Counted from the first letter of the stretch, positions 2,845-26,424 are shown. The stretch: DNA of 29,835 bases from Actinomycetota bacterium (GCA_046724095.1 JBKOVW010000235.1:1-29835); one strand, 5' to 3'. Numbers and translations: made by a program. Notes: generated by a model not told the origin, from the letters alone.

Positions 2845-3531
2845 GTGCACATCGTCACGTTGAGCTTCGACGACGGCTTCGAGCGTTCGTCGATTCGGAC
2901 GGCGGAGATCTTCGAGCGCCACGGACTGGTCGCCGAGTTGAATGTGATCGCAGCCGGCCACCGGAGCAAGCCCGACGAGGAGTGGCACCGCCGCTGGCCC
3001 AAAGGCGACTTTCGCCTCTGGAACGAGCTCCAGGCGCGTGGCCACCGCGTGATGCCGCACGGCCTCGAGCACGTGAACAAAGCGGAGGTTCCGCCAGCCG
3101 AGGCAAAGCGGCTGATCGAGGCTTGCCTCGAGGTGTTTCGTGCCGAGCTGGCAGGGTTCGAAGCGTCGCGGGCGAGCTTCGCCTTTCCCTATAACAGCTC
3201 GACTCCGGCGCTCGAGGCCTGGCTCTGCACTCGCGTGCGCGCCTTCCGGACACTCGGCGATCCGGTGATGCCGCTCCCTTACTCCAACCAGCAACGCGTG
3301 ACGTGTACAAGCTTCGGTCCCGGGCGTTGTGACGACCATCTGTTGCACACGATCGACTCGTTCCTTGCAGGCGAGCGCGGGTGGCTCTGTTACAACCTTC
3401 ACGGGCTCGACGACGAGGGCTGGGGTCCGGTCGGCAGCGACACGCTCGACCGCCTGCTGGAACGGCTGGTCGCGCATGATGCCCGTGTGCTGCCGATCAC
3501 CGCTGCGCTCGACCTGGCCGTCGCCACATGA
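2845..3531 (+). CDS. Polysaccharide deacetylase (NodB homology, CE4-like), no signal peptide
   Basis: Likely start GTG 2845. TLSFDDG (motif 1), HGLEH (metal-binding His), FAFPYN, LHGLD. Stop overlaps the next ATG. Confidence 0.85.
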   Translation: MHIVTLSFDDGFERSSIRTAEIFERHGLVAELNVIAAGHRSKPDEEWHRRWPKGDFRLWNELQARGHRVMPHGLEHVNKAEVPPAEAKRLIEACLEVFRAELAGFEASRASFAFPYNSSTPALEAWLCTRVRAFRTLGDPVMPLPYSNQQRVTCTSFGPGRCDDHLLHTIDSFLAGERGWLCYNLHGLDDEGWGPVGSDTLDRLLERLVAHDARVLPITAALDLAVAT

Positions 3532-4223
3532 CTCTGCGCGAGAAGACCGCTCTCGTCACCGGCACCTCGCGCGGAATCGGGCCTGCGATCGCGCGGGCTC
3601 TGGCAAAGGAAGGAGCGCGGGTCCTCTGCCATGCGCGCAACGACGCCGATGCGCGGACGCTCGCGGACGAGCTCGGCGGCGTGGCGATCGTCGGCGACCT
3701 CTCGTCCGAGGATGGTGTCGAATCGGTGGCCGAGCAGACGTTGGCTGCGACGTCCGTGCTGCACGTCCTCGTCCACAACGCGGCCGTCAACCCGCGACCG
3801 CACGAGTCGTTCGACGAGGTCGACCGAGAGATCTTCCGCGAAGTCGTGCGGGTGAACGTCGAGGCTCCTCTCTTCCTCACACAGGCGCTCCTCGAGCCAC
3901 TTCGGGCGGCCTTCGGAGCCCGGGTAGTTCTCCTGTCTTCGCAGGCCGGGCAGATCACCGGCGGCATGCCGGCCGACGGCCTGAGCTACCGGGTCTCGAA
4001 GGCTGCGCTGAACGCGGTCAGCGCAGTAGCGGCCACCGCGCTCCGAGGCAACGCGATCCTCGTCAACGCGATGCACCCGGGCTGGGTCCGAACAGACATG
4101 GGCGGACCAGAAGCGCCGTTGTCCCCGGAGGAAGGGGCAGACACCGCCGTCTATCTCGCCACGCTTCCGGACGACGGTCCTTCGGGTCGCTTCTTCTACG
4201 AGCGTCGCGAGATCGACTGGTAG
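3528..4223 (+). CDS. Short-chain dehydrogenase/reductase (carbonyl-reductase-like SDR)
   Basis: TGTSRGIG, HNAA, YRVSK (YxxxK), NAMHPGWVRTDMGG. Confidence 0.93.
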   Translation: MTLREKTALVTGTSRGIGPAIARALAKEGARVLCHARNDADARTLADELGGVAIVGDLSSEDGVESVAEQTLAATSVLHVLVHNAAVNPRPHESFDEVDREIFREVVRVNVEAPLFLTQALLEPLRAAFGARVVLLSSQAGQITGGMPADGLSYRVSKAALNAVSAVAATALRGNAILVNAMHPGWVRTDMGGPEAPLSPEEGADTAVYLATLPDDGPSGRFFYERREIDW

Positions 4224-4229
4224 GCGACG

Positions 4230-5105
4230 ATGGCCGCAACGCGCTGCGTCGTCAATCCAGGGTGCAGTCTCGGCGAGGGGCCCCTCTGGGACTCCGACTC
4301 GCAACGCCTCTACTGGGTCGACATCCTCGAGAATCGCATCTACCGATACGACCCGGCCGACGGAGTCACGCGTTCCTGGACCACCCCGGAACATGTGGGT
4401 TTCGTCATCGTCAAACCGGGCGGGAAGCTCGTCGCCGGTTTCAAATCTGGGCTTCATCACGTCGAGCTCGGCGACGACGAGACCGTCACGTCGGCTCGGA
4501 TCGACCGGGTCGATCGCAACCGCGACGACGTCCGCTTCAACGACGCGACTTCCGATGCGGAGGGGCGGATGTGGGCCTGCACGCTTGGCGGAACGCCCGA
4601 GGAGCCGCTAGGGGCCTATTACTGCTACGACGGCGATCTGACCCGGCGCACCGTTGACGCCGGCTATTTCGTCGCAAACGGGCCGGCGCTCAGCCCGGAC
4701 CGCAGTCTGCTCTACACGGTTGAGACGAGCGGACATCCCCGCCGGCGCAAAGGCGTCTATGTGTCGCGCATCGCAGCGAGCGGAGCGCTCGAAGACCAGC
4801 GGCTGTTGATCCCCTGGGACGCCTATGACTCCTCACCCGACGGCGTCGTCACGGACGGCGACGGAAACCTCTGGCTCGGCGAGTTTCACGGCAACGTTCT
4901 CCGCTGCTTCAGCTCCGAGGGTGAGCAGCTCGCAGCCGTACCGCTGACCGCCTGGAACATCACCAAGGCGGTCTTCGGCGGCGAACGGGGTGATCTCCTC
5001 TACGTCACGAGTGCCCGCGTCGAAGTGGACGAGCAGACGCTCGCACGCTACCCGGACACCGGGGGTGTGATCGAAGTCTCGGGCACTGGTGCGCGGGCCG
5101 CTTAA
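4230..5105 (+). CDS. SMP-30/gluconolactonase/LRE family sugar lactonase
   Basis: LGEGPLWD, RFNDA, ANGPALSPD, PDGVVTDGDGNLW, FGGERGDLLYVTSAR. Confidence 0.92.
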   Translation: MAATRCVVNPGCSLGEGPLWDSDSQRLYWVDILENRIYRYDPADGVTRSWTTPEHVGFVIVKPGGKLVAGFKSGLHHVELGDDETVTSARIDRVDRNRDDVRFNDATSDAEGRMWACTLGGTPEEPLGAYYCYDGDLTRRTVDAGYFVANGPALSPDRSLLYTVETSGHPRRRKGVYVSRIAASGALEDQRLLIPWDAYDSSPDGVVTDGDGNLWLGEFHGNVLRCFSSEGEQLAAVPLTAWNITKAVFGGERGDLLYVTSARVEVDEQTLARYPDTGGVIEVSGTGARAA

Positions 5106-5117
5106 GGTGCACATTCA

Positions 5118-6254
5118 GTGAAGATCACCGCGCTCGAGCCGTTCGTCGTCGACATCGGATCGCGGAACTGGTTGTTCGTGGTCGTGGAGACCGACGACGG
5201 GGTCAGCGGCGTCGGCGAGGGCAGCCTGCCGGGCCATCCGCGCGCAGTTGCGACGGCGGTGGAGGAGTACCGGGAGTACATCGTCGGCGAAGATCCGGCG
5301 CGGATCCAGCATCTCTGGCAGCTGATGTACCGGCAGCCGTTCTTCCGCAGCGGTGCCGTGACCTTGTCGGGAATGAGCGCGATCGAGCAGGCGCTCTGGG
5401 ACATCAAAGGGAAAGTCGCGGGCCTGCCGGTCTACGAGCTGCTCGGCGGCCGCTGCCACGACCGCATCAAGCTCTACGCGAACGGGCCCGGCGGCGCCTC
5501 GCGCGAGGAGCTCGGCGAGAGCGCCCGTGCGCTTGTCGACGACGGATTCACGGCGCTGAAGACCGGCCTCGCCGAACCGGTGCTGCCCGTTCAGGGCGAC
5601 GGGATCTTCCGCCGCGCAGCCGAGCATCTCGAAGCGTTGCGCAGCGCCGTCGGCGAGGACGTGGAAATCGCGTGGGACGCGCACGGCCGGTTCACACCCG
5701 CAATGTCGATCAAGCTTGCCCGCGCGCTCGAGCCCTACAACGTCTGGTTCCTCGAGGAGCCCGCGTTGCCCGAGAATGCGAAGGGTCTGGCGCAGGTTGC
5801 GCTGGCAACCTCGATCCCGGTTGCGACGGGCGAACGCCTCTTCACGAAGTGGGCCTTTCGCGAAGTCCTCGAGCTCGGCGGCGCGGCGTTGCTGCAGCCG
5901 GACCTCTCCCATTGCGGCGGCGTGCTCGAAGCACGGGCAATCGCCGCAATGGCCGAGGTCTACTTCTGCGGGCTTGCGCCGCACAACCCGCTCGGCCCGA
6001 TCAACACGATCGTCTCGGCCCACGTGGGGATGGCCAGTCCGAACTTCGTCGCGCTCGAGGTCTGCAACTACGCGCCTGACTGGACACAAGGGCTGCTGAC
6101 CGAGCCGCTCGTCTACGCGGACGGCTACCTCGAACTGTCGGACAAGCCCGGCTGGGGGGTCGAGCTCGACCTCGAGCTGTGCCGGGCTCACCCGTATGTC
6201 GCCGCGAAGCTGCCGATCCTCCGGCATCCGAGCGGCGCGGTCGCCGACTGGTAG
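5118..6254 (+). CDS. dgoD: D-galactonate dehydratase-like enolase-superfamily (MR/MLE) enzyme
   Basis: IEQALWDIKGK, DAHGRF, LEEP, ATGERLF, QPDLSHCGG, PHNPLGP closely follow the DgoD pattern. Substrate not proven. Confidence 0.8.
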   Translation: MKITALEPFVVDIGSRNWLFVVVETDDGVSGVGEGSLPGHPRAVATAVEEYREYIVGEDPARIQHLWQLMYRQPFFRSGAVTLSGMSAIEQALWDIKGKVAGLPVYELLGGRCHDRIKLYANGPGGASREELGESARALVDDGFTALKTGLAEPVLPVQGDGIFRRAAEHLEALRSAVGEDVEIAWDAHGRFTPAMSIKLARALEPYNVWFLEEPALPENAKGLAQVALATSIPVATGERLFTKWAFREVLELGGAALLQPDLSHCGGVLEARAIAAMAEVYFCGLAPHNPLGPINTIVSAHVGMASPNFVALEVCNYAPDWTQGLLTEPLVYADGYLELSDKPGWGVELDLELCRAHPYVAAKLPILRHPSGAVADW

Positions 6255-6257
6255 CCA

Positions 6258-7409
6258 GTGACGGACAAGGTGCGCATCGGGTTCGTCGGCGCCGGGTTCA
6301 TGGGGCAGCTCGCGCACATCCGGAGCTACGCCCTGCTCCGCGAGGAATGCGAGCTCGTGGCACTGGCCGAACCGCGGCACCGTACGGCCGAGCTCGTGGC
6401 GGAGCGCTACGGCATCGGGCGCGTCTACCGCGATCATCGTGAGCTGCTCGAGTCGGAGCAGCTCGACGGGATCGTCGCTGCGCAGAAGTTCATGTATCAC
6501 GCCGCCCTGCTTCCCGAGCTCTATCCGCACGTGCGCCATCTCTTCACGGAGAAACCGCTCGCGCTCTCCGAGGCGACGGGCGAGCGGCTCGGGCGCCTTG
6601 CGCGGGAAAGCGGGTGCGTCCATATGCTCGGCTACCAGCGCCGCTCCGATCTGGCGACCGTCGAGGCCAAGCGCGTCGTCGACGCCTGGAAGGCGAGCGG
6701 TGAACTCGGCCGCCTCCGTTATCTGCGCATGTGCTTCACGGACGGCGACTGGACCGGCAATGCCCACGGGTTGATCGACGCCGGGGAGCAACCACCGTCG
6801 TTCCCCGCCGAGGAGCCGCCGCCCGAGTTCGCCGGAGACGAGGACGCCGTTTGGTCGCTCTCAATCGGCGTGGACACGCTCGTCCATCCGCTCAATCTCC
6901 TCCGTCACTTCGTCGGTGAGCCGTATCGGCTCGTCTTTGTTCACGCCACGGGCCGGCTCTGCGCGTTCGAGAGCGAATCGGGCGTCCCCATGACGATCGA
7001 GGTCTCGCCCTATCGCGTGTCGGTCGGCTACGACGAGGAGCTCTTAGTCGCGTTCGAGCGCGGGTACGTGCGGTTGTCCCCGGCCCCGTCCCTGGCCGTC
7101 AATCGTGCGGGTCGGGTCGAGATCTACAGCGATCCGGGAGGCGTGCCGCCACAGCGCGTCGCGCCAGAGCTCCCGTGGATCGATCCGCAGCAGGCGCAAG
7201 CGGCGAACTTCTTACGTGTCTGCCGCGGAGCGGCAGGACCGCCGACCGACGCCGCGGAAGCGGTCGAGGACCTGCGCCTCGTCGCGGACATCGTGCGTGC
7301 CCGCATGGACCTCCCCGGCGCTCGCGAAGCCGTCCGCACCGACCGCGAGGAACACGTGCGCGCCTGGGAAGAGCAGCTGCGCACGCTCGAGCGAAACAGG
7401 TCTACGTAG
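6258..7409 (+). CDS. Gfo/Idh/MocA family NAD(P)-dependent oxidoreductase
   Basis: IGFVGAGFMG Rossmann motif, LFTEKPLA, GYQRRSD. Confidence 0.88.
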   Translation: MTDKVRIGFVGAGFMGQLAHIRSYALLREECELVALAEPRHRTAELVAERYGIGRVYRDHRELLESEQLDGIVAAQKFMYHAALLPELYPHVRHLFTEKPLALSEATGERLGRLARESGCVHMLGYQRRSDLATVEAKRVVDAWKASGELGRLRYLRMCFTDGDWTGNAHGLIDAGEQPPSFPAEEPPPEFAGDEDAVWSLSIGVDTLVHPLNLLRHFVGEPYRLVFVHATGRLCAFESESGVPMTIEVSPYRVSVGYDEELLVAFERGYVRLSPAPSLAVNRAGRVEIYSDPGGVPPQRVAPELPWIDPQQAQAANFLRVCRGAAGPPTDAAEAVEDLRLVADIVRARMDLPGAREAVRTDREEHVRAWEEQLRTLERNRST

Positions 7410-9420
7410 GCGCGAGCAGGGCGACCCCGTAAGGCCCGAGCACGAGCGAGCCTGCGTCGAGCACGCCGTCGAGGTGGCTCGGCGGCGCGCCGGGAATCGA
7501 GATTGTGCGCTCCTCGGGCGCGTAGTTGAGCAAGAACATGAGCTCCGTGGCCGTACCCGGCTTGCGCAGCTTGACCAGCTCCACATCCTCGGGGGCCTCG
7601 AAGACGTCGAGCGCAACTTCGCGTGCGACCCAGCGGTACAGCTCGTCGAGCGTTGCCTCCGTGGCGGAGCCCCCGATGTAGACGACCCGGCCGGCGCCGA
7701 CCGCGTTGATCGCAACCGCCGCCGCGCCCGCGAAGTCACGGTCGCGGTGCCGATAGACCGGGCGGGCGCCCTTAAGTGAGAGCTCCTCGAACCAGCCGCG
7801 CAATTCCGCGACGGCTCCGCTCTCGACATGCTCGATCTCGACGACGCGCCCGTCGAGGAAGCTGGCGATGTCCGACACCTCGAGTCCCGCCAGCTCGTCG
7901 AGCCAGGCAGGCAGCGGTCGCTCGGGAACCGCGTTCGCCCGGTCCTTGAACCCCGACCGCGCTCCGAGGACGAGCAGCCCGCCACCCTCGACGTAGGAGC
8001 GCAGAGCGGCCGCGACCGCCTCGTCGATCACGTACAGGCTGGGCGCGCTCACGACCGAGTAGGACGAGAGGTCGTCGGTCGGCGCCAGCACGTCGACCCC
8101 GACGCCCAGTCGCCTCAACGCCCCGTAGTGCGCACGCAAGGTGTCGACGTGCGCGAGCGCGGGGTTCGTCGGCTGGATCTCGAGCGCGAAGCGCGCGTCG
8201 TAGTCGTACACGAGCGCAGCGCGTCCGGCGGGCACGGCTCCGCCCAGCAAAGCATCGATGCCGCCGAGCTCCTGCGCCAGGTCGCTGAGCTCTCGGAGGC
8301 GCCGGTTGGGCCGGCCATCGTGGTCGAGAACGCCGTACCAGTGCTGCTCGGTTCCGAAGCGGGCTGAGCGCCAGCGGAAGTAGCAGACGGCCTCGGCTCC
8401 GTGCGCAAGCATCTGGTACGTGTGCAGTCGCATCTGGCCGCGCCGCGGCGTCCGGATCGTCTCCCACCCGAGCGGCCCGACTTGCTGCTCCATCACCCAG
8501 AAGGGCACGTCCTTCAGGCCGCGAATCGCGTCGCAGTTGAGCGCGGGCTCGAGCCAGCCGTCGGTCGTGTTGAAGACCGGGTAGTTGTCCCACGCGAGGA
8601 AATCGAGCTCGCGCGCCAGCTCCTGGAAGTCGAGCTCGCGGAACCTAAAGCTCCTCAGGTTGTGCGTGATCGGAGTGTCCGAGTGCCGCCGGATCTCTTC
8701 GATCTGCAGCCGCTGATACCGGACGAAGCTGTCTGACGCGAAGCGCCGGTAATCCAGCGCATGGGCTGGCGAGGGCGAGGCGGGCAGGAACCCCTCGGGC
8801 AGCGGCACATCGCCGCCCGCCGGGAGGGGGATGTGATCCCAGGAGCGATACGTGTGGCTCCAGAAGGCGGTGCCCCAGATCGCGTTCAGGCGCTCCAGCG
8901 ATCCATATCGCTCCTCGAGCCAGTGCCGGAACGCCGCTGCACAGCGCGGGCAATAGCACCGTTCGCCGAACTCGTTGTCGATCTGCCACGCGACGACACG
9001 GTCGTCGGCGCCGTAGTGCTCTGCCAGGGCCGCAACGATTCGCCGTGACTCCTGCTGATACGTCGGGTTGTTCGGGCAGTAGTGGCGACGGTGTCCGAAC
9101 GGAACGACTCGGCCGTCGCTGTCGATTCGGTGGATGTCCGGATGCTCGGCGCTCAGCCAGCCGGGCGGCGCTGCGGTCGGCGTTCCGAGCACGACCTCGA
9201 TGCCGTTCTCGGCCATGAGCGACACCGTGCGGTCGAGCCAACCGACCTCGAGCGAGCCCCGCTGAGGCTCGAGCGTCGCCCACGAGAACTCCGCCATGCG
9301 GACGACTCGGATCCCCGCTTCGGCCATCATCCTTGCGTCGGTTGCCCAGCGCTCCTCCGGCCACTGCTCCGGGTAGTAGGCGACACCCAGGCGGACCGGC
9401 TTGGAACGCGGCGGGGTCAC
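7402..9420 (-). CDS. GH42 beta-galactosidase (catalytic + trimerisation domain)
   Basis: YYPEQWP, EFSW, WQIDNE (acid/base Glu), CYCPRC Zn site, VMEQQ (nucleophile Glu), YFRWRS, EQHWYG. Confidence 0.95.
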   Translation of the reverse strand: MTPPRSKPVRLGVAYYPEQWPEERWATDARMMAEAGIRVVRMAEFSWATLEPQRGSLEVGWLDRTVSLMAENGIEVVLGTPTAAPPGWLSAEHPDIHRIDSDGRVVPFGHRRHYCPNNPTYQQESRRIVAALAEHYGADDRVVAWQIDNEFGERCYCPRCAAAFRHWLEERYGSLERLNAIWGTAFWSHTYRSWDHIPLPAGGDVPLPEGFLPASPSPAHALDYRRFASDSFVRYQRLQIEEIRRHSDTPITHNLRSFRFRELDFQELARELDFLAWDNYPVFNTTDGWLEPALNCDAIRGLKDVPFWVMEQQVGPLGWETIRTPRRGQMRLHTYQMLAHGAEAVCYFRWRSARFGTEQHWYGVLDHDGRPNRRLRELSDLAQELGGIDALLGGAVPAGRAALVYDYDARFALEIQPTNPALAHVDTLRAHYGALRRLGVGVDVLAPTDDLSSYSVVSAPSLYVIDEAVAAALRSYVEGGGLLVLGARSGFKDRANAVPERPLPAWLDELAGLEVSDIASFLDGRVVEIEHVESGAVAELRGWFEELSLKGARPVYRHRDRDFAGAAAVAINAVGAGRVVYIGGSATEATLDELYRWVAREVALDVFEAPEDVELVKLRKPGTATELMFLLNYAPEERTISIPGAPPSHLDGVLDAGSLVLGPYGVALLAPT

Positions 9421-12315: not shown

Positions 12316-12351
12316 GGGCCGCTCTCCGCTTAGTCCGTCGGAGAGCGGCCC
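12316..12351. terminator. Perfect 13-bp hairpin between convergent genes, likely intrinsic/bidirectional terminator
   Basis: GGGCCGCTCTCCG (12316-12328) / CGGAGAGCGGCCC (12339-12351), 10-nt loop. On the minus strand it is followed by CCAACCTTTT. Confidence 0.6.
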
Positions 12352-17460: not shown

Positions 17461-17563
17461 TAGCTTGTCTGATAGGTTCGGCCTTGTCAAGATGCTGCCG
17501 CCAGGAGCCAAGGGCTTGATTCGCATCAGCAGATCAAACAAGCTATGCCAGCATGACTGACAA
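17461..17563. promoter_or_regulatory. Back-to-back divergent promoters with FadR/GntR-type operator boxes
   Basis: Minus strand: TTGACA (17490-17485), 17 bp, CAAGCT (17467-17462). Plus strand: TTGATT (17516-17521), 17 bp, CAAGCT (17539-17544), then ATG 17553. Inverted pair TAGCTTGT(C/T)TGAT at 17461-17473 and 17533-17545. Third TGTCNGACA-like box at 17553-17563. Confidence 0.65.
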
Positions 17564-18320
17564 ATCGCTTGCCGCCTTCGACGAGCTCGAGCCAATCGGC
17601 CGCGCCTCGGTGGTGGACTCGGTGATCGAACGGCTCGAGTCGCTGATCTTCGACAGCTTCGAGCCCGGTGCGACCCTGCCCTCGGAAGGGAAGCTCGCCG
17701 AGGCGCTCGGCGTGAGCCGCCTCAGCGTCCGGGAGGCCACCAAGACCCTCGCCGCGCGCGGGCTGCTCGAGATCAGCCAGGGCCGGCGCCCCCGGATCTC
17801 CGTACCGAACGGCAGCCTGGTCGGGGACTTCTTCCAGATCGCCGTGCGCCGTGACCCCCGCGCGCTGCTCGAGCTCCTCGAGGTGCGAAGGGCCCTCGAG
17901 GTCCACATCGCAACACTCGCCGCCCAACGAGCCAATGCCGGCGCGATCGCCGACATGGAGATGTCGATCAACGCCATGCGCTCGGCAGGCGCCGAGTTCG
18001 AAGCGTTCCACACCGCCGACGTCCGCTTTCACGAGAACCTCGCTGCGGCCTCGGGCAACCGCATGCTCGTCTTCCTGATCGAGGCGTTTGCCGAACCGCT
18101 CCGCCAAAGCCGGCAACGGAGCTTTGCCGGCCACCGTGCACGAGGAGGCGGGATCGACGACGTCATCCAGCAGCACCAGACGATCCTCGACGCCGTCACG
18201 GCCCGCAACCCCAAGGCAGCAGCTCAGGCGATGCGCGACCACCTGCAGCAAACCGAGCAGGATCTCCGCACACATCTGCAACGCACCGCGGAGGAGCAAG
18301 CGAAGGCGGTCGAAGCGTGA
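17553..18320 (+). CDS. GntR/FadR-family transcriptional regulator (HTH + FCD)
   Basis: LPSEGKLAEALGVSRLSVREA, GRRPRI, LLEVRRALE, DVRFHENLAAASGN, AMRDHL. Confidence 0.95.
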   Translation: MTDKSLAAFDELEPIGRASVVDSVIERLESLIFDSFEPGATLPSEGKLAEALGVSRLSVREATKTLAARGLLEISQGRRPRISVPNGSLVGDFFQIAVRRDPRALLELLEVRRALEVHIATLAAQRANAGAIADMEMSINAMRSAGAEFEAFHTADVRFHENLAAASGNRMLVFLIEAFAEPLRQSRQRSFAGHRARGGGIDDVIQQHQTILDAVTARNPKAAAQAMRDHLQQTEQDLRTHLQRTAEEQAKAVEA

Positions 18321-19489
18321 GGGTCGTCGAGGTCGTCACGACCGTCGTCGGTGCGCCGTGGCGCGAGCTCACGTTCGTCGAGCTCGTCGCAGACGACGGG
18401 CGGCGCGGCCTCGGCGAGGTTCGGATGGTCAACAAGACGGACACGCTGGTCGCCTGCATCGCCGAGCTCGCGGCCCGATATGTCGTCGGAGCAGATCCGT
18501 ACGACCGGGAAACGCTGGCCTTCAACATCCAGCGCGCGGAGTACAGCCGGCCGGGTGAGATCACGCAATCCGCCCTGGCCGCGTTCGACCTCGCCTGTTG
18601 GGACCTGATCGGTCAGGAGCTGAACGTCCCGATCTGGAAGCTTCTGGGAGGGCGATACCGAGACCGCGTTCGAGCGTATGCGAACGGCTGGTACCAGACC
18701 GACCGCGACCCGGCCGCGCTGGCCGAGAAAGCGGTCGACGTCGTTGCGCGTGGCTATACCGCGCTCAAGCTCGACCCGTTCGGCAGCGCGTGGATGACCC
18801 TCCCGTCCGCCGAGCGGCGGCGATCGATCGAGCTCGTCGCGGCCGTCCGCGAGGCGACCGGGCCCGACGTCGAGATCATGATCGAGATGCACGGCCGCTT
18901 CTCGCCGGCGGCCGCAGCCGAGATCGCGGCCGAGCTCGACCCGTTTGCGCCGGCCTGGCTGGAGGAACCGATTCCGTTCGACAATCCGAGTGGGCTCGCC
19001 CGCGTTCGCGCCGCGACGCCCCGGCCGATCGCGACGGGTGAGCGCCTCCATCTTCTCCCGGACTTCCGCCCGATCATCGAGCAAGGCCTCGTCGACGTCG
19101 TGCAAGCGGATCTCACGCACTTCGGCGGCTTCACGGGCTTGTGCCGGCTGGCAGGGTGGGCCGAGGCGTACGAACTGCCGCTCGCACCGCACAACGTGTG
19201 TGGGCCGGTAGGAACACTGGCGAACATCCACTTCGCGGTCGCCACGCCGAACTACCTGATCCTCGAGCACTTCAACGACTTCGCCGACAGCTGGGTGAGC
19301 GACCTCGTCGATGCCGCACCGGCGATCGATCCGCTCGACGGCTGCTTCGAGGCACCGACCGCTCCCGGCCTCGGCCTTCGGCTCGACCACGATGCTTGCG
19401 CCGAACACCCGCGCACGCACACGGGGATCTTCCTCTTCAGCGAAGGCTGGGAGCGCAGGGGCGAGCCGTCGACGGCGACACCACCGTGA
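18317..19489 (+). CDS. Enolase-superfamily (MR/MLE) acid-sugar dehydratase, second copy
   Basis: ACWDLIG, YANGW, KLDPF, IEMHGRF, LEEP, ATGERL, VQAD, PHNVCGP. Confidence 0.88.
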   Translation: MRVVEVVTTVVGAPWRELTFVELVADDGRRGLGEVRMVNKTDTLVACIAELAARYVVGADPYDRETLAFNIQRAEYSRPGEITQSALAAFDLACWDLIGQELNVPIWKLLGGRYRDRVRAYANGWYQTDRDPAALAEKAVDVVARGYTALKLDPFGSAWMTLPSAERRRSIELVAAVREATGPDVEIMIEMHGRFSPAAAAEIAAELDPFAPAWLEEPIPFDNPSGLARVRAATPRPIATGERLHLLPDFRPIIEQGLVDVVQADLTHFGGFTGLCRLAGWAEAYELPLAPHNVCGPVGTLANIHFAVATPNYLILEHFNDFADSWVSDLVDAAPAIDPLDGCFEAPTAPGLGLRLDHDACAEHPRTHTGIFLFSEGWERRGEPSTATPP

Positions 19490-20508
19490 GCGGCGAGATG
19501 CGTGCGGTCGTCGTCGAACGGCCGCAAACTGCAACCCTGCAGCTCGTCCCGAGGCCGGACCCGCGTCCGGGCGAGGTGCTTGTCCGCGTCGGAGCCGCCG
19601 GCATCTGCGGCTCGGACGTCGAGTTGCTCGAGGGTCGAAGGCCGGCGCGCTACGTGCGCTATCCGATCATCCCGGGTCACGAATGGGCAGGGCTGGTCGA
19701 GGCGATCGGCCCCGGCGTCGAGAACGTCGCCGCAGGAGATGCGGTCGTGGCAGAGGGCTTTCGCGCCTGCGGCGATTGCGCTCGGTGTCGCGAAGGACGC
19801 ACGAACCTCTGCGCGGCAGACTACGCGGAAACCGGATTCACCCACGCGGGCGCGTTCGCGGATTTCCTCTGCGTCCCGTCTCACCTGATCCACCGGCTTC
19901 CGCCTGGGACCGACCTCGCCGCAGCTGCAGTGCTGGAGCCGGCTGCGTGTGTTGCACAGGGACTGTTGGAGATCGACCTTCGGCCGGGCCTGACAGCGGC
20001 GGTGGTCGGTTCCGGGACCCTCGGCCTGCTCGCGGTCGCGCTCCTCGGTCGCGTCAGCCCGGCACGGCTGGCACTCGTCGGGACGCGCTCGCAGCGCCTG
20101 TCGCTCGGCAAGGCCATGGGGGCAACCGAGACGTGGAACGTTCGCCAGGACGAGTATCCAGAGCCGGGTTTCGACCTCGTGTTCGAAGCCGCCGGCACGC
20201 CCGGCGGGGCTCGCACCGCGGTCGAGCTCGCGCGGCGCGGCGGTACCGTCGTCCTCGAAGGAATCTCCGGGCAATCGGCCGGAATCGACGCGGACGCGGT
20301 TGTGCTGGGGCACCTGCGCGTGCAGGGCATCTTCGGCGCCTCGCGCGACGCCTGGCGGTGGGTGACGGAGCTCTTTGCGGACGGCCTGCTCGACACGAAG
20401 CCGCTCGTAACGCATTCCTTCCCGCTCGAGCAGTACGACGCAGCCTTCACGACGCTCGCCGAGCGCAAGGGCGACGCGCTCAAGGTGCAGCTGACGCCGA
20501 AGTCGTGA
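19486..20508 (+). CDS. Zn-dependent MDR-family (polyol/sugar-acid) dehydrogenase
   Basis: Start GTG 19486 (or ATG 19498). GICGSD, PGHE, CGDCARC...NLC structural Zn, EPAAC, GSGTLG. Confidence 0.92.
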   Translation: MSGEMRAVVVERPQTATLQLVPRPDPRPGEVLVRVGAAGICGSDVELLEGRRPARYVRYPIIPGHEWAGLVEAIGPGVENVAAGDAVVAEGFRACGDCARCREGRTNLCAADYAETGFTHAGAFADFLCVPSHLIHRLPPGTDLAAAAVLEPAACVAQGLLEIDLRPGLTAAVVGSGTLGLLAVALLGRVSPARLALVGTRSQRLSLGKAMGATETWNVRQDEYPEPGFDLVFEAAGTPGGARTAVELARRGGTVVLEGISGQSAGIDADAVVLGHLRVQGIFGASRDAWRWVTELFADGLLDTKPLVTHSFPLEQYDAAFTTLAERKGDALKVQLTPKS

Positions 20509-21953
20509 ACGCCCCCGCGCTCACTTCGCTGGTGGGTGGCCGTCCACGCGAGGGCGACGAGGTCGTTCCCGACATCAACCCGGCCGCGCCGGAGGAGCAG
20601 GTCGCGACCGTGACGTTGGCGGGACCCGAGCTCGCCGCGGAGGCGGTCGAGGCGGCGGCTGCCGCCTTCGCGAGCTGGCGTGACACGCCTCCACCTGCGC
20701 GCGGTGACCTGCTGCGACGAGCGGCCGATCTCGTCGACGAGCGCGCGGAGACCATCGGCCGCGATCTCGCACGCGAGGAGGGGAAGACCCTCGTGGAGGC
20801 CGTCGGCGAGACGCGACGCGCCGCCGCGATTCTTCGCTACTACGCAGGGCAGACGCTCGAGCCCGACGGAGAGACATATCCGAGCCACTCGGCGCTGACG
20901 TTCCTCTATGCGCGGCGTGAGCCGCTCGGCGTCGTGACCGCGATCACTCCGTGGAACTTCCCTATCGCCATCCCCGCGTGGAAGATCGGACCGGCGCTCG
21001 CCTACGGGAACACCGTCGTCTGGAAGCCGGCCGAGATCGTCCCGCTCACGTCGACGCACCTCGCTGCGGCGCTGATCGACGCCGGGCTGCCCGACGGCGT
21101 CCTCAATCTCGTGCTCGGGCGTGGCTCGGTCGTCGGCGACACCATCGTCACGGACGGTCGCGTCGACGCCGTCACCTTCACCGGCTCGAACGCCGTCGGC
21201 CGCGCCATCAATCTGAAGGCGACCGAAGCAGGGAAGAAGGTTCAGCTCGAGCTCGGCGGCAAGAACCCCGCCGTCGTATTGGCAGATGCCGACCTAGAGC
21301 TCGCGGCCGAGCAGGTCGCGCGGGGCGCATTCCTGTCGGCCGGGCAGAAGTGCACCGCTACGAGCCGTGTCATCGTCGAACGGGGCGTGCTCGAAGAGTT
21401 CGGCGATCGCGTCGCGGAGCTCGCGCGGTCCTGGCCGGTGGGCGATCCGCTCGACGAGACGACGAAGGTCGGCCCGCTCGCCTCGAAGGCTCAGCTCGAC
21501 ACCGTGTCCGGTTACCTCGACGTCGCAGAACGCGACTCTGCGCGGGTGCTCGCCGGGGGCGGGCGTCCCGACGGCGGCGGCTACTTCGTCGAGCCGACGG
21601 TGTTGGCGGACCTGCCCCCGACCAGTCGCGTCGTCCGAGAGGAGATCTTCGGCCCGGTAGCAGCGCTGCTCCCGGCAAGCTCCTACGAGGAAGCGGTCGC
21701 GCTCGCCAACGACACGCCGTTCGGCTTGACCGCCGCCTTGTTCACGCGTGACCTCGGCCAGGCGCTCCGCTTCGCGGGAGACATCCGCGCCGGCGTCGTG
21801 AAGGTCAACCAGGAGAGTGCGGGCCTCGAGTTCCAGGCGCCGTTCGGCGGCATGCGCCAGAGCTCGAGCGGCTCCCGCGAGCAGGGCAAGGTCGCCCGCG
21901 ACTTCTTCACGCAATGGAAGACCGTGTACCTCGACCCTCCTCCGACCGGATGA
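20505..21953 (+). CDS. Aldehyde dehydrogenase, 2,5-dioxopentanoate (KGSA) dehydrogenase-like
   Basis: Start GTG 20505. ITPWNFP, FTGS, LELGGKN, GQKCTA (catalytic Cys), EEIFGP, PFGGMRQSSSGSREQG (YcbD/KGSADH-like tail). The KGSA subtype is inferred. Confidence 0.88.
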   Translation: MNAPALTSLVGGRPREGDEVVPDINPAAPEEQVATVTLAGPELAAEAVEAAAAAFASWRDTPPPARGDLLRRAADLVDERAETIGRDLAREEGKTLVEAVGETRRAAAILRYYAGQTLEPDGETYPSHSALTFLYARREPLGVVTAITPWNFPIAIPAWKIGPALAYGNTVVWKPAEIVPLTSTHLAAALIDAGLPDGVLNLVLGRGSVVGDTIVTDGRVDAVTFTGSNAVGRAINLKATEAGKKVQLELGGKNPAVVLADADLELAAEQVARGAFLSAGQKCTATSRVIVERGVLEEFGDRVAELARSWPVGDPLDETTKVGPLASKAQLDTVSGYLDVAERDSARVLAGGGRPDGGGYFVEPTVLADLPPTSRVVREEIFGPVAALLPASSYEEAVALANDTPFGLTAALFTRDLGQALRFAGDIRAGVVKVNQESAGLEFQAPFGGMRQSSSGSREQGKVARDFFTQWKTVYLDPPPTG

Positions 21954-22894
21954 ACATCCGCGACGGCCTCGAGCGCAGCGGTCTACCGTCGGCCGACCTG
22001 CACGAGCTGCCGACCTCGGAGAAGCGGTTCCCCGACGGTGCGCAGTACCGCGTCGAGATCCCGAGCACCGAGGGTCCGCGCTCTCTCGAGGCGATCCTGG
22101 AAGAGGCAGATCGACTCGAGGTAGTCGTGCATCGCGTGTCGCAAGGAAGCGGCGTCTTCATGCTCACGGACGCCGAGCTCGACGAGTTCGTCGCCCTGGC
22201 TGCCGGTGCGAACGTCGAGCTCAGCCTCTTCGCACGGCCGAACGCCGGCTGGGACGCGTCGGCAACGAGCCGAGCGCCGGCGGGTGGCGTGCTCGCGGCG
22301 TCCGCGCGTGGGCAGGACCAGCTCGTCGCAGTCCTCGAGGATGCCGTTCGCGCCGCCGACCACGGGGTGAGAAGCGTCCTGCTTGCAGACATCGGCGCGC
22401 TCTACGCCTTTTCGCGCCTCCGTGCGGACGGCGTTCTTCCCGCCGAGATGCAGGCGAAGGTCTCGGTGATGCTCCCGATCGCGAATGCGGCGACGGCGAA
22501 GGTCCTCGAGGACCTCGGCGCTTCGACCCTGAACCTCCCTCCCGACCTCTCGCTTCCGCAGATCGCGGCCGTCCGTGCCTCGGTCGATCTCCCGATCGAC
22601 TTCTACGTCGAGGCGCCGGACACGCTCGGGGGATTCGTGCGTCTGCACGAGATCCCCGAGCTGATCCGAGTCGCTGCTCCCGTCTACGTCAAGTTTGGAC
22701 TGCGCAACGCGCCCGACGTGTACCCGTCGGGGACGCACCTCGAGCAGACAGCGGTCGCGTTGTCACGCGAGCGCGTGCGGCGAGCACGTCTCGGCCTCGA
22801 GCTGCTCGAGCGGTCCGGCTACGAAGCCGCTCGCTCCGCGCTCGGCGCCGACGGCTTGGCAATTCCGGTTGCGGCGTCGGCGGTCTCCGCCTGA
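21950..22894 (+). CDS. U32-peptidase-like TIM-barrel protein of unknown function, no cysteines
   Basis: ATG 21950 (ATGA overlap with ALDH). YRVEIPSTEGP, HRVSQGSG, VLLADIG, LGASTLN...DLSLPQIAAVRASVDLPIDFYVE resembles the U32 core. Strong codon bias and tight coupling support a real gene. Confidence 0.7.
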   Translation: MNIRDGLERSGLPSADLHELPTSEKRFPDGAQYRVEIPSTEGPRSLEAILEEADRLEVVVHRVSQGSGVFMLTDAELDEFVALAAGANVELSLFARPNAGWDASATSRAPAGGVLAASARGQDQLVAVLEDAVRAADHGVRSVLLADIGALYAFSRLRADGVLPAEMQAKVSVMLPIANAATAKVLEDLGASTLNLPPDLSLPQIAAVRASVDLPIDFYVEAPDTLGGFVRLHEIPELIRVAAPVYVKFGLRNAPDVYPSGTHLEQTAVALSRERVRRARLGLELLERSGYEAARSALGADGLAIPVAASAVSA

Positions 22895-22897
22895 CTC

Positions 22898-24004
22898 GTG
22901 CCTGCGCGGGTCGGCATCGGCGTCGTGGGCGCCGGCAGCATCGGGATCCGCGGCGCTCTTGCGCATCTCTCGCTCGAGGATGTGCAGGCCCGGGTCTTTC
23001 TCGCGGCCGTCTGCGACCCGGTGCCCGGTCGGGCGGCCGCCGTTGCCAGGCGATTCAACGTGGCGCGGGCGTACGAGCGGTACGAGGATCTGCTCGAGGA
23101 CACGGCCGTCGACGCGGTCACGCTGTGCTCGCCGATCGGGCTGCACTACGAGCAGGGGCTGAAAGCGATCGAAAACGGCAAGCACGTCCACTTCAACAAG
23201 ACGATGACCACGACGGCTGCAGAGGCGACGGATCTGCTCGATCGCGCCGCCGTCGCCGGCGTCCGGCTGGTCGCGTCCCCCGGCGAGATGCTGCGGCCAC
23301 TGAACCGCGCCGTCCGGGACCTCGTCGAAAGCGGGCGGCTCGGCAAGATCTCGTGGGCCGCGACGGGCGCGGCGTTCGGCACCTACCACGAGGACGAGCC
23401 CGTGCGGCAGCGCAACGGAATCGATCCGTCTTGGTACTGGCGCAAGCCGGGCGGCGGTCCTTTGTACGACATGGCGGTGTACGGGCTGCACACGCTGACG
23501 GGGATTCTCGGGCCGGCGAAGCGCGTGGCGGCCATGTCGGGCATCGGGATCGCCGAGCGCGAGTTCCAAGGCGAGACCCGTGAGTGCACCGCCGACGACA
23601 ACTCGCTGCTGCTGCTCGACTTCGGCGACTCGGTGTTCGCGTTCGTGCACGGGACGTTCGCCGGCCGCCTCACGGGGCTCGGGTCCGTCAACGTGTACGG
23701 CAGCGACGGGACGGTCGAGGGAGCGCTCCTCGACGGCTCGCCGATCCGCTATCCGGGACACGAGCGCGTGCAGCCCGGGCGAGACGGCGATGCCGTTTTG
23801 CTTCCGCACGTCGACGAAGCACACGCGGCGCTCGGAGAGGCATTCGTCTTCGAGGACGTGATGCAGCTCGTCGACTGCGTTCGTGATGACACCGCGACGG
23901 TGTGCGATGCGCGCCACGCACAGCACGTGATCGAGCTCATCGAGGCGGCCTACCGCTCGGCGGACACGGGCCGGGCACAGGACATCGCGGCGGCAACGTG
24001 GTGA
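22898..24004 (+). CDS. Gfo/Idh/MocA family oxidoreductase, second copy
   Basis: IGVVGAGSIG, VTLCSPIGLHY, KHVHFNKTM, GGGPLYDMAVY. Confidence 0.9.
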   Translation: MPARVGIGVVGAGSIGIRGALAHLSLEDVQARVFLAAVCDPVPGRAAAVARRFNVARAYERYEDLLEDTAVDAVTLCSPIGLHYEQGLKAIENGKHVHFNKTMTTTAAEATDLLDRAAVAGVRLVASPGEMLRPLNRAVRDLVESGRLGKISWAATGAAFGTYHEDEPVRQRNGIDPSWYWRKPGGGPLYDMAVYGLHTLTGILGPAKRVAAMSGIGIAEREFQGETRECTADDNSLLLLDFGDSVFAFVHGTFAGRLTGLGSVNVYGSDGTVEGALLDGSPIRYPGHERVQPGRDGDAVLLPHVDEAHAALGEAFVFEDVMQLVDCVRDDTATVCDARHAQHVIELIEAAYRSADTGRAQDIAAATW

Positions 24005-26424
24005 CCGCGTCCACCTCCTCGCTCGAGCGCCTCAGCCTCGAGGAGAAGGTCTCGCTGCTCAGCGGTCAGGACAAGTGGTCGCTGCCGGCGCTCCCGCAGA
24101 TCGGTCTCTCCTCGATCGTCATGTCCGACGGCCCGACCGGCGTCAAAGAGGACGGATCCCTGCCGATCCGCAGCCCGATGGTCCCCTGTGGAACGGCGCT
24201 CGCTGCGTCGTGGAACACCGCGCTCGTCGAGTCGATCGGAGCGCTGCTCGGCGAGACCGCGCGCGCAAACGGGGTGCAAGTGCTGCTCGCGCCCGCGACG
24301 AACATCCTCCGCTCGCCCCTGGGGGGACGCAACTTCGAGTACTACTCGGAGGACCCGCTCCTCGCGGGCAAGGTCACCTGCGCCTACGTGTGTGGTGTGC
24401 AGAGCGCTGGCGTCGCCGCCACCGTCAAGCACTTCGTCTGCAACGACACCGAGACGCATCGCTTCGACGGCAACGTCGACGTCGACGAGCAGGCCTTGCG
24501 CGAGATCTACCTGCTGCCGTTCGAGCTCGCGGTGCGCGAGGCGAACGCCTGGGCGATCATGTGCTCGTACAACAAGCTGCGCGGCGTTCACATGTCCGCG
24601 CAGCCTCTGCTCGACGCCATCCTGCGGAGGCAGTGGGGCTTCGACGGCGTCGTCGTGTCCGACTGGGGCGCGGTTCACGACACGGTCGGATCGGGCCGGA
24701 GTGGACTCGACGTCGAGATGCCCGGGCCGCCGGAGCTCTGGGGAGCCCGGCTCGTCGAGGCGGTTCGCTCGAGCGAAGTGCCCGAGGAGTGTATCGACGA
24801 GAAGGTCGGGCGCATTCTGCGCCTGGGGAGGCGAACCGGTGCCGTCGAAGGCTCCGCACGCGAGCTCACGGCCACGCCGGACCGCCCGGGCGTCTCGTCG
24901 CTCGTACGCCAGGCGGCGATCGAATCGTTCGTGCTGCTCAAGAACGAGGACGAGGTACTGCCGTTCGACGCGTCGTCGCGCATCGCAGTTCTCGGCGCGC
25001 ACGCCGGACAGCCGCCGTTGCAGGGTGGCGGCAGCGCGAACGTCGGACCGTCTGTCGGCGTGTCGCCGCTCGAGGGGATCCGGCGGCTTGCGGGTGAGAC
25101 CACCGAGGTGGTGTACGAGCCGGGCTACGTGCCGGACGCAATGCCTCGTCTCGATCTCAGCTGGGTCACGGGGCTCGACGGCGCCGAAGGCTTCACCGCC
25201 GAGGTCTTCGACACGCACGAACCGTCGAGTCCGATCCGCTCGCTGACGCAGCGGACCAATTTCTTCATCTTGGACAACGAGGTCGAGGGTCGGCCGCTGC
25301 GAGAGCTGCTGGTTCGGTTGACCGCGACATTGACTCCCCCCGCCGACGGCGAGTACGTCTTCGGGATCGACTGCTCCGGCGCCGCCACCGTTCGCATCGA
25401 CGGAGAAGAGCGACTGGTGCTCGCGCCGGAGCACGACCGGGACTGGTCGGCGTTGTTCTTGGCCGATCCGAGGGGCATTTTCCGCGCGCCGCTCGAGGGC
25501 GGGCGGCCCGTCCGGTTCGAGCTCGATTTCCGGACGCACCCCGGTCCCCGTGGCGAGATCGGCCTGATCACGCTGCGGGCGTTCCCGCCTGCTCCCGAGG
25601 ATCTGCTCCGACGCGCGGTTCAGGCTGCCTCCGACGCCGACGTGGCGGTGGTCTTCGCCGGTCTCGGTGAGGAGTTCGAGAGCGAAGGCTTCGATCGGTC
25701 GTCACTCGAGCTTCCTGCAGAACAGCTGGAGCTGATCGCGGCTGTCGCGGCTGCGAACCCCGCCACCGTCGTCGTCGTTAGCGCGGGCGCGCAGTTGTTG
25801 ACGGACTGGGCGGAGCAGGTGCCGGCCGTGCTCCTGGCGTGGTACCCGGGCCAGGAGTTCGGCGATGCGCTGGCTGAAGTGTTGCTGGGGCGAGCCGAGC
25901 CCGGCGGACGGCTGCCGATGACTTTTCCCGTGCGACCGGAGGACGCTCCCGTGCTCGAGCCGGGCCCCGACGATTCGGTGGCGAACGAGTGGCACTACCG
26001 GGAAGGCCTGTTCGTCGGCTATCGGCACTACGACCGCCGGCAGATCACGCCCGCCTACTGCTTCGGGCATGGCCTCGGTTACACCACCTTCGACTACGAA
26101 GATCTGCGCGTCGAGCGGAAGGGCCTCGAGGTCGAGGCTGCTGTGCGCGTTCGGAACTCCGGTCACCGACGCGGGAAAGCGGTCGTGCAACTGTACGTCG
26201 GATCGGGACGTGCGGACCGGCCGCTGTGGGAGCTGAAGGACTTCCGGAGCATCGTGCTCGATGCCGGCGCTGAGGAAGACGTGCGCTTCACGCTGAACGA
26301 GCGCGTTTTCTCGCAGTGGGACTCCGACCTCGGCGACTGGGCGGTTCTAGACGGACGACACACGATCGCGGTCGGCAGCTCCTCACGGGATCTCCGCCTG
26401 ACGACGACGGTCGACAGCCTGTGA
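24001..26424 (+). CDS. GH3 beta-glucosidase/xylosidase-like enzyme with PA14 insertion and Fn3-like C-terminus, no signal peptide
   Basis: Start GTG 24001 (GTGA overlap). SDGPTG, GRNFEYYSEDP, KHFVCND, VVSDWG (nucleophile Asp), ESEGFDR, YREGLFVGYRHYD. Confidence 0.95.
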   Translation: MTASTSSLERLSLEEKVSLLSGQDKWSLPALPQIGLSSIVMSDGPTGVKEDGSLPIRSPMVPCGTALAASWNTALVESIGALLGETARANGVQVLLAPATNILRSPLGGRNFEYYSEDPLLAGKVTCAYVCGVQSAGVAATVKHFVCNDTETHRFDGNVDVDEQALREIYLLPFELAVREANAWAIMCSYNKLRGVHMSAQPLLDAILRRQWGFDGVVVSDWGAVHDTVGSGRSGLDVEMPGPPELWGARLVEAVRSSEVPEECIDEKVGRILRLGRRTGAVEGSARELTATPDRPGVSSLVRQAAIESFVLLKNEDEVLPFDASSRIAVLGAHAGQPPLQGGGSANVGPSVGVSPLEGIRRLAGETTEVVYEPGYVPDAMPRLDLSWVTGLDGAEGFTAEVFDTHEPSSPIRSLTQRTNFFILDNEVEGRPLRELLVRLTATLTPPADGEYVFGIDCSGAATVRIDGEERLVLAPEHDRDWSALFLADPRGIFRAPLEGGRPVRFELDFRTHPGPRGEIGLITLRAFPPAPEDLLRRAVQAASDADVAVVFAGLGEEFESEGFDRSSLELPAEQLELIAAVAAANPATVVVVSAGAQLLTDWAEQVPAVLLAWYPGQEFGDALAEVLLGRAEPGGRLPMTFPVRPEDAPVLEPGPDDSVANEWHYREGLFVGYRHYDRRQITPAYCFGHGLGYTTFDYEDLRVERKGLEVEAAVRVRNSGHRRGKAVVQLYVGSGRADRPLWELKDFRSIVLDAGAEEDVRFTLNERVFSQWDSDLGDWAVLDGRHTIAVGSSSRDLRLTTTVDSL

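Follow-up and report, generated by a model that had tools for sequence, protein, structure and literature searches.

What does a U32-like protein without cysteines do inside a sugar-acid operon? The question is raised by a 29,835-nucleotide (nt) stretch of DNA from an Actinomycetota bacterium (GCA_046724095.1 JBKOVW010000235.1:1-29835; the whole stretch is called the window here), in which the open reading frame (ORF) at 21950-22894 (plus strand) encodes the only unassigned enzyme of a long operon. A sequence-only reading had proposed that this protein acts on a 2-keto-3-deoxy acid (KD-acid), supplying a step for which the window holds no known enzyme. Our analysis showed that it belongs to a large, uncharacterised, Cys-free sister family of the U32 TIM-barrel proteins, with the 4Fe-4S ligands lost and core positions kept, and we class it as a U32-superfamily barrel that was recruited to carbohydrate catabolism with its defining Fe-S site lost. 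The KD-acid of the neighbouring dehydratase is probably its substrate, and the exact reaction can be given only tentatively.

Translation of the ORF confirmed a protein of 314 amino acids (aa) with no Cys residue, and direct reading of the sequence confirmed its translational coupling to the upstream aldehyde dehydrogenase (ALDH) gene, all as previously described: the start codon ATG at 21950 and the ALDH stop codon TGA (21951-21953) share an ATGA (21950..21953, plus strand). The stop codon of the U32-like gene is at 22892-22894, and the GTG start of the downstream GFO gene follows at 22898, after a 3-nt gap. A second in-frame ATG lies at 21914, but alignments to homologues begin at residues 2-7 of the 314-aa protein.

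Judged from profile comparisons, the protein is a true but remote U32 homologue. Its sole significant Pfam match was PF01136 (Peptidase_U32), which scored 27.8 bits (gathering threshold, 22.4 bits; E value of 1.8e-6); the match is partial, spanning residues 134-220 of the protein and, of the 233 profile positions, 10-90, about one third of the profile. The same Pfam family was matched by 25 of 26 diverse family members, and hhalign comparison of the family profile with Escherichia coli UbiU, UbiV and TrhP gave a probability of 95.1% (E value of 3e-8), in agreement with the U32-like character proposed for the protein. The extended alignment paired (family/UbiU) G139/G88, D147/D96, P164/P108, K170/H113, S172/S115, N179/N122, D217/E161 and R231/R175, the UbiU residues of these pairs being invariant across the three E. 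coli proteins; L200-S201/L144-S145 are further shared core positions. No NCBIfam model matched the protein, a PDB search with the single sequence found nothing, and an ESM Atlas feature search with U32 excluded gave no usable match; the family profile yielded weak PDB matches to 5d88 (E value of 0.17) and 1gvf (E value of 0.52). A second, weak PF01136 match in the window's genome (G000:C2:2000-2476; 23.3 bits, covering profile positions 104-217) contains three stop codons; it is either the remnant of a canonical U32 gene or fortuitous.

The cysteines of characterised U32 proteins have a defined role. Those of UbiU and UbiV ligate 4Fe-4S clusters through a motif of the CX6CX15CX3-4C type (PMC6747719), the ligand cysteines are essential in RlhA and UbiU (PMC5727448, PMC6747719), and mutagenesis of RlhA showed that E161, C169 and C176 are required for activity (PMC5727448). 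In the segment D217-L232 of the U32-like protein, which comprises beta7 and the following loop (22598..22645, plus strand), the hhalign pairs are D217/E161, T225/C169, R231/R175 and L232/C176. Thus, both alignable ligand positions are replaced, C169 by T225 and C176 by L232, and the region of UbiU C193 and C232 could not be aligned to the family. D217, the counterpart of E161 in the LEVFxHG segment, is kept in 23 of the 26 members, with Glu in one more. No conserved Cys column was found in the alignment of the 26 members, so that Cys-freeness is family-wide rather than peculiar to the window protein, and with the ligand cysteines replaced the family therefore cannot bind a 4Fe-4S cluster. This bears directly on a canonical U32 function, either Fe-S- and prephenate-dependent hydroxylation of the UbiU/UbiV, TrhP or RlhA type or peptidase activity: genuine as the homology is, such a function is highly improbable for a protein with no Cys and with replacements at essential ligand positions, and no U32 C-terminal domain, DUF3656, UbiT partner or quinone- or RNA-modification context was found by Pfam, the neighbourhoods consisting of carbohydrate genes. 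The Fe-S hydroxylase function, already considered unlikely in the sequence-only reading, was rejected because of the missing cysteines.

The TIM barrel claimed for the protein was recovered in an AlphaFold2 model built from the 26-sequence alignment, which showed eight beta/alpha units with a mean predicted local distance difference test score (pLDDT) of 93 and a predicted TM-score (pTM) of 0.92, loop 95-121 being of lower confidence. Foldseek searches against the PDB placed class II fructose-bisphosphate and tagatose-bisphosphate aldolases and the U32 structure 5d88 at the top (E values of about 1e-6 and TM-scores of about 0.5), and against the Swiss-Prot models the first seven matches were U32 proteins, TrhP-type tRNA hydroxylation proteins and RlhA. 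An exhaustive VIA search gave CutC (Z 15.6), 5d88 (Z 14.4) and the YdjI aldolase (Z 14.3). The fold is established, yet alone it assigns no function to the protein.

Six residues were invariant in all 26 members (S23, D29, E36, D147, R209 and R231), and a further six were conserved in 24 of them (R62, R134, R141, K170, N195 and K248). No His column reached 80% conservation among the 26 members, the best being position 61 (17/26). The family has a conserved N-terminal motif of its own, S-x3-F-x-D. From the strand positions in the model, E36, D147, K170/S172, N195, D217, R231 and K248 would lie at the catalytic face, and D29, R62 and R141 probably at the barrel bottom. E36 (codon 22055..22057, plus strand), placed at the end of beta1 by the alignment and the model strands, is a candidate metal or acid-base residue. 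D147 (22388..22390, plus strand), just after beta4, aligns with the invariant D96 of UbiU, UbiV and TrhP, and K170 (22457..22459, plus strand), in beta5, aligns with H113, a residue that does not vary among UbiU, UbiV and TrhP. K248 (22691..22693, plus strand), in beta8, has the codon position given in the sequence-only reading and, being nearly invariant, is a fair candidate, as proposed there. The acidic residues of the YVEAPD motif fared less well, E221 and D224 being conserved or invariant only in the close subfamily, and E36, D147, R231 and K170 are better candidates.

The family comprises more than 7000 clusters at 90% identity (word-indexed search, scored among 8000 candidates) and 1129 representatives at 50% identity (E values up to 0.001), and public annotation labels its members 'U32 family peptidase' or hypothetical. 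Its distribution is patchy, with the gene present in 13 of 41 genomes of the window's own order, and it is found in cultured bacteria such as Thermomicrobium roseum, Nonomuraea, Saccharopolyspora and Dictyobacter. Literature searches turned up no publication on what the family does, and none that deals with the T. roseum cluster or places a U32-like protein without Cys in sugar-acid catabolism. The T. roseum orthologue WP_012642555.1, 62% identical to the window protein, is encoded on the megaplasmid (NC_011961.1, 578251-579186; locus L121) in a cluster of IclR, a sugar-binding protein, an ATP-binding cassette (ABC) ATPase, MR/MLE, an MBL-fold hydrolase and the U32 'peptidase', and would be a convenient experimental system.

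The operon runs in the order GntR, MR/MLE, MDR, ALDH, U32-like, GFO/MocA, GH3, ABC ATPase and then two permeases, all on the plus strand. Its first gene encodes a GntR/FCD regulator (17553..18320; Pfam GntR and FCD), with a GTGA overlap with the next gene, an MR/MLE (enolase-superfamily) acid-sugar dehydratase (18317..19489; Pfam MR_MLE_N/C) closest to gluconate/galactonate dehydratases, which scored 297 bits with NCBIfam glucon_galact_dh and 254 bits with DgoD, both below the cut-off. There follow a Zn-dependent MDR dehydrogenase with a glucose-dehydrogenase-type C terminus (19486..20508; Pfam ADH_N, ADH_zinc_N and Glu_dehyd_C, and NCBIfam) and the ALDH (20505..21953). Start/stop overlaps (GTGA, ATGA, or GTG at most 7 nt from TGA) were found at the GntR-MR/MLE, MR/MLE-MDR, MDR-ALDH, ALDH-U32-like, GFO-GH3 and GH3-ABC ATPase junctions, U32-like/GFO being the sole non-overlapped junction among those checked (up to 27617). 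The coupled unit is unusually long (17553-27617), and the U32-like gene therefore lies inside one long cotranslated operon, as had been concluded from the ALDH junction.

A Pfam scan of the window, covering its genes other than ORFs 10617-12299 and 12330-12914, found no gene of the DHDPS, FAH, HpcH/HpaI or KDPG-aldolase families and none of the KD-acid kinase families known for such routes, which upholds the claim that neither a DHDPS-like or FAH-like dehydratase nor an aldolase is present. On other contigs of the window's genome (73% complete), two DHDPS and three FAH genes were found, and neither Eda nor HpcH was detected.

To place the gene in its wider context, 80 loci of homologues with at least 55% identity, found from 8 closer sequences, were collected, of which 74 were usable. 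Genes were predicted with a caller based on GC content at third codon positions, first checked on the window, and five genes on each side were clustered and named by Pfam and NCBIfam. Two apparent fusions of 1209 aa (L059) and 799 aa (L050) were ruled out as read-through artefacts of the ORF caller. The neighbour families were MR/MLE (16 loci), MDR (14), IclR (14, 13 of them at position -1), ALDH (13), SDR (13), MBL-fold Lactamase_B_2 (11, of which 8 were directly upstream), xylose-isomerase-like barrel (11), GFO (9), AKR (9) and aldose 1-epimerase (6). Other neighbours were GH42, GH1, GH127, PfkB, Eda, FAH, HIBADH and GlcD-like FAD oxidases, some of the last with an Fe-S subunit gene adjoining, as in GlcDEF. 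Five layouts recurred: that of the window ([GH42 or GH1], MR/MLE, MDR or SDR, MBL, (ALDH), U32-like); U32-like with a xylose-isomerase-like barrel and a levoglucosan-dehydrogenase-like GFO; sugar ABC, aldose epimerase and IclR, with the U32-like gene divergent; PfkB, Eda, AKR, tartrate dehydrogenase and IclR, with the U32-like gene and an MFS transporter divergent; and ABCF with U32-like. In a maximum-likelihood tree of close homologues, the layouts are intermixed over short branch lengths, which suggests one biochemical function among these homologues.

MR/MLE genes stood within five genes of the U32-like gene in 16 of the 74 loci and were codirectional with it in all 16, in at least six gene orders and in Actinomycetota, Chloroflexota, Dormibacterota, Acidobacteriota and Thermomicrobium. 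By a rough estimate, the chance expectation for this pattern is below 2%. The partners in these loci were an MDR or SDR sugar dehydrogenase (11/16) and an MBL-fold lactonase-like protein (8/16), plus GH42 or GH1, with ALDH in just 3 of the 16. The expectation that the gene is always found beside MR/MLE, MDR and ALDH was thus contradicted, MR/MLE being present in only 22% of the loci. DHDPS, FAH, HpcH and Eda were all absent from the 57 unlabelled neighbours of the 16 MR/MLE-linked loci, as judged from the 25 of 60 Pfam families listed. The smallest modules consisted of GntR, MR/MLE and U32-like (Nonomuraea) and of IclR, ABC, MR/MLE, MBL and U32-like (T. roseum); in their arrangement they look like dehydratase-plus-aldolase operons, of which E. 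coli rhmRDTA is an example. Among genomes of the window's order, KDPG aldolase occurred in 1 of 13 with the gene and in 6 of 28 without it, numbers that are small and come from related genomes. The copy numbers of DHDPS and MR/MLE did not separate carriers from noncarriers.

The codirectional MR/MLE linkage, the lack of any listed known KD-acid consumer, the minimal modules and the rarity of KDPG aldolase together favour a lyase. We consider the chances evenly balanced that the U32-like protein acts in some way on a KD-acid; that the reaction is specifically aldol cleavage is possible, at clearly lower odds. Overall, lyase action, i.e., retro-aldol cleavage of a 2-keto-3-deoxy acid, is our favoured explanation, tentatively held. 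Cleavage to pyruvate and an aldehyde is favoured as the most economical reading; since ALDH is optional, these products fit better than an obligatory alpha-ketoglutarate semialdehyde (KGSA). The presence of distant homologues beside aminotransferases also suits an aldolase that forms 4-hydroxy-2-oxo acids. The claim that the protein fills the KD-acid step is plausible and fits the 16 MR/MLE-linked loci; its KGSA-forming version is weakened by the scarcity of ALDH, and both the KGSA-forming and the cleaving version by the Eda/kinase and FAH loci described below.

According to the proposed mechanism, the lyase would take the 2-keto-3-deoxy sugar acid produced by the adjacent MR/MLE dehydratase. 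The sugar would likely be of the galactose or L-arabinose type, released by GH3 or GH42 and then oxidised by the MDR or GFO dehydrogenase. The enolate of the 2-oxo acid could be stabilised by the carboxylates of E36 and D147, possibly via a divalent metal, and by R231, K170 and K248, and retro-aldol cleavage between C3 and C4 would yield pyruvate and glyceraldehyde, glycolaldehyde or lactaldehyde. Where present, the upstream ALDH may oxidise the released aldehyde. The operon would then be a bacterial counterpart of the archaeal nonphosphorylative Entner-Doudoroff or Dahms route, with a new type of aldolase.

The ALDH raises a different prospect, the main idea of the sequence-only reading: a Weimberg-type second dehydratase that would remove the C4 hydroxyl of a 2-keto-3-deoxy pentonate to give KGSA, which the ALDH would convert to 2-oxoglutarate; 5-keto-4-deoxy-glucarate, with decarboxylation, would be an alternative substrate. 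The enzyme scored best with the models for KGSA and 2,5-dioxovalerate dehydrogenases (551 and 513 bits), the next family, betaine-aldehyde dehydrogenase, reaching 414 bits. The 'KGSA-type' label given to it earlier thus holds as to its nearest relatives and falls short as a firm assignment, since the 551 bits obtained with NCBIfam GucD are below the equivalog cut-off of 770. The order GntR/FCD, MR/MLE, ALDH, X resembles that of the Bacillus subtilis ycb glucarate operon, in which the DHDPS-type KdgD takes the place of X, glycosidases that release L-arabinose (GH127, GH42 and arabinopyranosidase-like GH3) are repeatedly found close by, and the enolate chemistry would be the same as that of an aldolase. 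Against this stand the presence of ALDH in so few of the MR/MLE-linked loci and the hexoses to which GH42, GH1 and the galactonate/gluconate-like MR/MLE point, there being to our knowledge no KGSA route for hexoses; moreover, two loci already have an adjoining FAH-family gene (see below). Retro-aldol cleavage is consequently considered more likely than dehydration to KGSA, which is ranked second of the two, and the Weimberg-type role as a whole seems quite unlikely.

Several observations weigh against the lyase. The adjacent ALDH, being nearest to KGSA dehydrogenases, favours the dehydratase. As to structure, all VIA Z-scores lie within the generic TIM-barrel range (a dense field at Z 12-14), hhalign against four E. 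coli class II aldolases gave only 17%, a likeness at the level of the fold, and the class II zinc histidines (GatY H83, H180 and H208) have no conserved counterpart in the family. As to context, MR/MLE is missing from the neighbourhood of 78% of close homologues, which occur in settings such as IclR with aldose epimerase and sugar ABC, GFO with the xylose-isomerase-like barrel, and ABCF. No other single observation speaks as strongly against a simple aldolase function as that of L071:7968-10464, an operon of U32-like, Eda and a KDG/KDGal-kinase-like PfkB (KDG, 2-keto-3-deoxygluconate; KDGal, 2-keto-3-deoxygalactonate) with 4-nt overlaps. In L096 the U32-like gene overlaps a KDG-kinase-like gene, and in L097 and L105 an FAH-family gene adjoins it, that of L097 being AraD1/GguC-like; an extra aldolase looks redundant in these four loci. 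Furthermore, neighbourhoods of the gene that contain MR/MLE never contain Eda, PfkB or FAH, a mutual exclusivity that could mean that the enzyme acts between producer and consumers. Finally, most genomes with a window-type cluster do have a consumer elsewhere (Eda in 12 of 14 and HpcH in 13 of 14), which the window's own incomplete genome does not show.

Some of these loci would suit a bridging or earlier step: a C4 epimerase or isomerase (e.g., KDGal to KDG), which might use an aldol mechanism, an enzyme that dehydrates or epimerises sugar acids, or one that handles lactones. Its product would feed KDG kinase and KDPG aldolase, or FAH and ALDH, adjoining or elsewhere. The operon of L071, the overlap in L096, the Eda genes of window-type genomes and the separation of MR/MLE as producer from Eda, PfkB and FAH as consumers all agree with such a step, as do L101 and L110, where a divergent IclR separates PfkB and Eda from the U32-like gene. 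Divergent IclR is also the commonest immediate neighbour (13 loci), and KdgR-type IclR regulators sense KDG. However, 12 of the 13 gene-carrying genomes of the window's order show no Eda, neither Eda nor HpcH was detected in the window's genome (73% complete), the dehydratase and lactonase steps are already accounted for wherever MR/MLE and an MBL lactonase-like gene are clustered, and tight coupling to kinase or aldolase was seen in only two loci. A bridging role is thus rather unlikely, and the lyase is still preferred.

More distant members (30-50% identity) were found in other small-acid or biosynthetic settings: an Opp-type ABC transporter with two Amidohydro_2 genes and creatininase, hydantoinase A/B with a 2-hydroxyacid dehydrogenase, the TctABC tricarboxylate transporter with PrpD and DHDPS, and biosynthetic clusters with an aminotransferase. 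This variety is what a general enzyme of small acids (2-oxo acids or dicarboxylates) would show if its substrate varied with the context, in which case the sugar-acid link of the window would say little about the reaction. The coupling to a fused B12 diol dehydratase in three loci speaks for the same idea; the interleaving of context types at short branch lengths among close homologues, suggesting one function, and the dominance of carbohydrate genes in their neighbourhoods speak against it, and we regard it as unlikely.

The three loci with the B12 enzyme come from Gaiellales-type metagenome-assembled genomes (L043:5750-8933, L053:20-3230 and L054:1-2629). There, a fused B12 diol/glycerol dehydratase of about 745 aa (large plus medium subunit) is encoded directly before the U32-like gene, from which its gene is separated by 1 nt or which it overlaps, and GFO, xylose-isomerase-like barrel and tartronate-semialdehyde-reductase-like genes follow. 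Homologues of about 31% identity were also observed in two apparent biosynthetic clusters. That of an Enterobacter plasmid (L122, NZ_CP097174.1) contained a phosphotransferase, an aminotransferase, an oxidoreductase, iron-containing redox enzymes, an M14 peptidase and a nucleotidyltransferase, and that of L033 an aminotransferase, an ALDH, an ATP-grasp enzyme, TauD and a carbamoyltransferase.

Oxidative routes (Weimberg, Dahms and nonphosphorylative Entner-Doudoroff) are used to turn hemicellulose sugars into chemicals, and pathway-prediction tools need every step of them to be recognised. Many soil Actinomycetota and Chloroflexota have operons that encode dehydrogenase, lactonase and dehydratase without a known enzyme for the keto-deoxy acid. 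It is possible, though less likely than not, that the family provides a further, nonhomologous way to carry out the last committed step in the oxidative nonphosphorylative sugar catabolism of Actinomycetota, Chloroflexota and their neighbours; if true, the assignment would close that gap, add a new type of catalyst, correct a misleading 'U32 family peptidase' label in thousands of genomes and show that a U32 barrel can exist without an Fe-S cluster. In that case, as the U32 core residues are kept, the family could also show that the U32 barrel of prephenate-dependent hydroxylases has a 2-oxo-acid site, which would bear on how these enzymes bind their 2-oxo-acid cosubstrate prephenate.

The rest of the window holds further carbohydrate genes. 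Downstream of the U32-like gene are those for the GFO/IDH/MocA sugar dehydrogenase (22898..24004, plus strand; Pfam) and a GH3 glycosidase resembling beta-glucosidases and alpha-L-arabinopyranosidases (23998..26424, plus strand; Pfam and NCBIfam, start from the gene caller). A second oxidative sugar module (3528..7409, plus strand; Pfam) consists of SDR, SMP30/gluconolactonase, MR/MLE and GFO and supplies a lactonase; it likewise contains no keto-deoxy-acid enzyme. Next to it, on the minus strand, are a GH42 beta-galactosidase (7402..9420; Pfam), whose family is also found next to U32-like genes elsewhere, in other genomes, and a LacI regulator (9424-10467). At the left end, an FGE-sulfatase (formylglycine-generating enzyme-like) gene (179-1147) and one for an SfLAP/Sap family membrane protein (1903-2580) are seemingly unrelated to the sugar-acid genes.

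Among known systems, the closest is Peptidase_U32 (UbiU/UbiV, TrhP, RlhA and PrtC; structure Mk0906, PDB 5d88), a homologous TIM barrel (Foldseek E value of 3e-6; VIA Z 14.4). Unlike it, the family has no Fe-S cysteines and no U32 C-terminal domain, carries K170 in place of H113, has the S-x3-F-x-D motif of its own and is found in carbohydrate catabolism rather than in quinone or RNA hydroxylation. Two Cys-less U32 groups of unknown function, PepU32#5 and PepU32#6, are reported to lack the four-Cys motif (Kimura 2017; Pelosi 2019). By description they resemble the family as Cys-less U32 relatives; their references come from Lactobacillales and a Methylomirabilis-like bacterium, and the family, with its weak PF01136 match, may be outside that tree.

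CutC (4r9x and 1twd) was the best structural match in the VIA search, with a root-mean-square deviation of 2.7 Å over about 200 residues. It has no sequence similarity to the family, its Z-score is within the generic TIM-barrel range, and its own function is unclear. The class II aldolases FbaA, GatY/KbaY (1gvf) and YdjI (6ofu) were the top Foldseek PDB matches (TM-scores of 0.46-0.52, E values of 9e-7 to about 1e-6), with VIA Z-scores of 13.8-14.3, again within that generic range. They share with the family two short motifs, around beta4 and beta6-beta7. However, diverse family members gave no Pfam match to PF01116 at E values up to 5, and the three GatY zinc histidines and an Asp-His pair after beta3, invariant across the E. 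coli paralogues, have no conserved counterpart in the family. Class II aldolase membership was rejected on the low hhalign value and the missing histidines. The substrates of these aldolases are phosphorylated ketoses, not 2-oxo acids, although the metal-stabilised enolate and C-C cleavage proposed here would be the same kind of chemistry.

The functional comparison is with the known KD-acid enzymes: the DHDPS/NAL-type KDG aldolase and 2-keto-3-deoxy-L-arabinonate (L-KDA) dehydratase, the FAH-type 2-keto-3-deoxy-D-xylonate (D-KDX) dehydratase, HpcH/HpaI (RhmA and GarL) and Eda. Neither the window protein nor diverse family members gave a Pfam match to DHDPS, FAA_hydrolase, HpcH_HpaI or KDPG aldolase. 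The U32-like gene occupies the same operon position as theirs, after an MR/MLE dehydratase and adjoining an ALDH, and the same substrates are proposed for it; if its function is confirmed, the U32-like enzyme would be a nonhomologous replacement of these enzymes.

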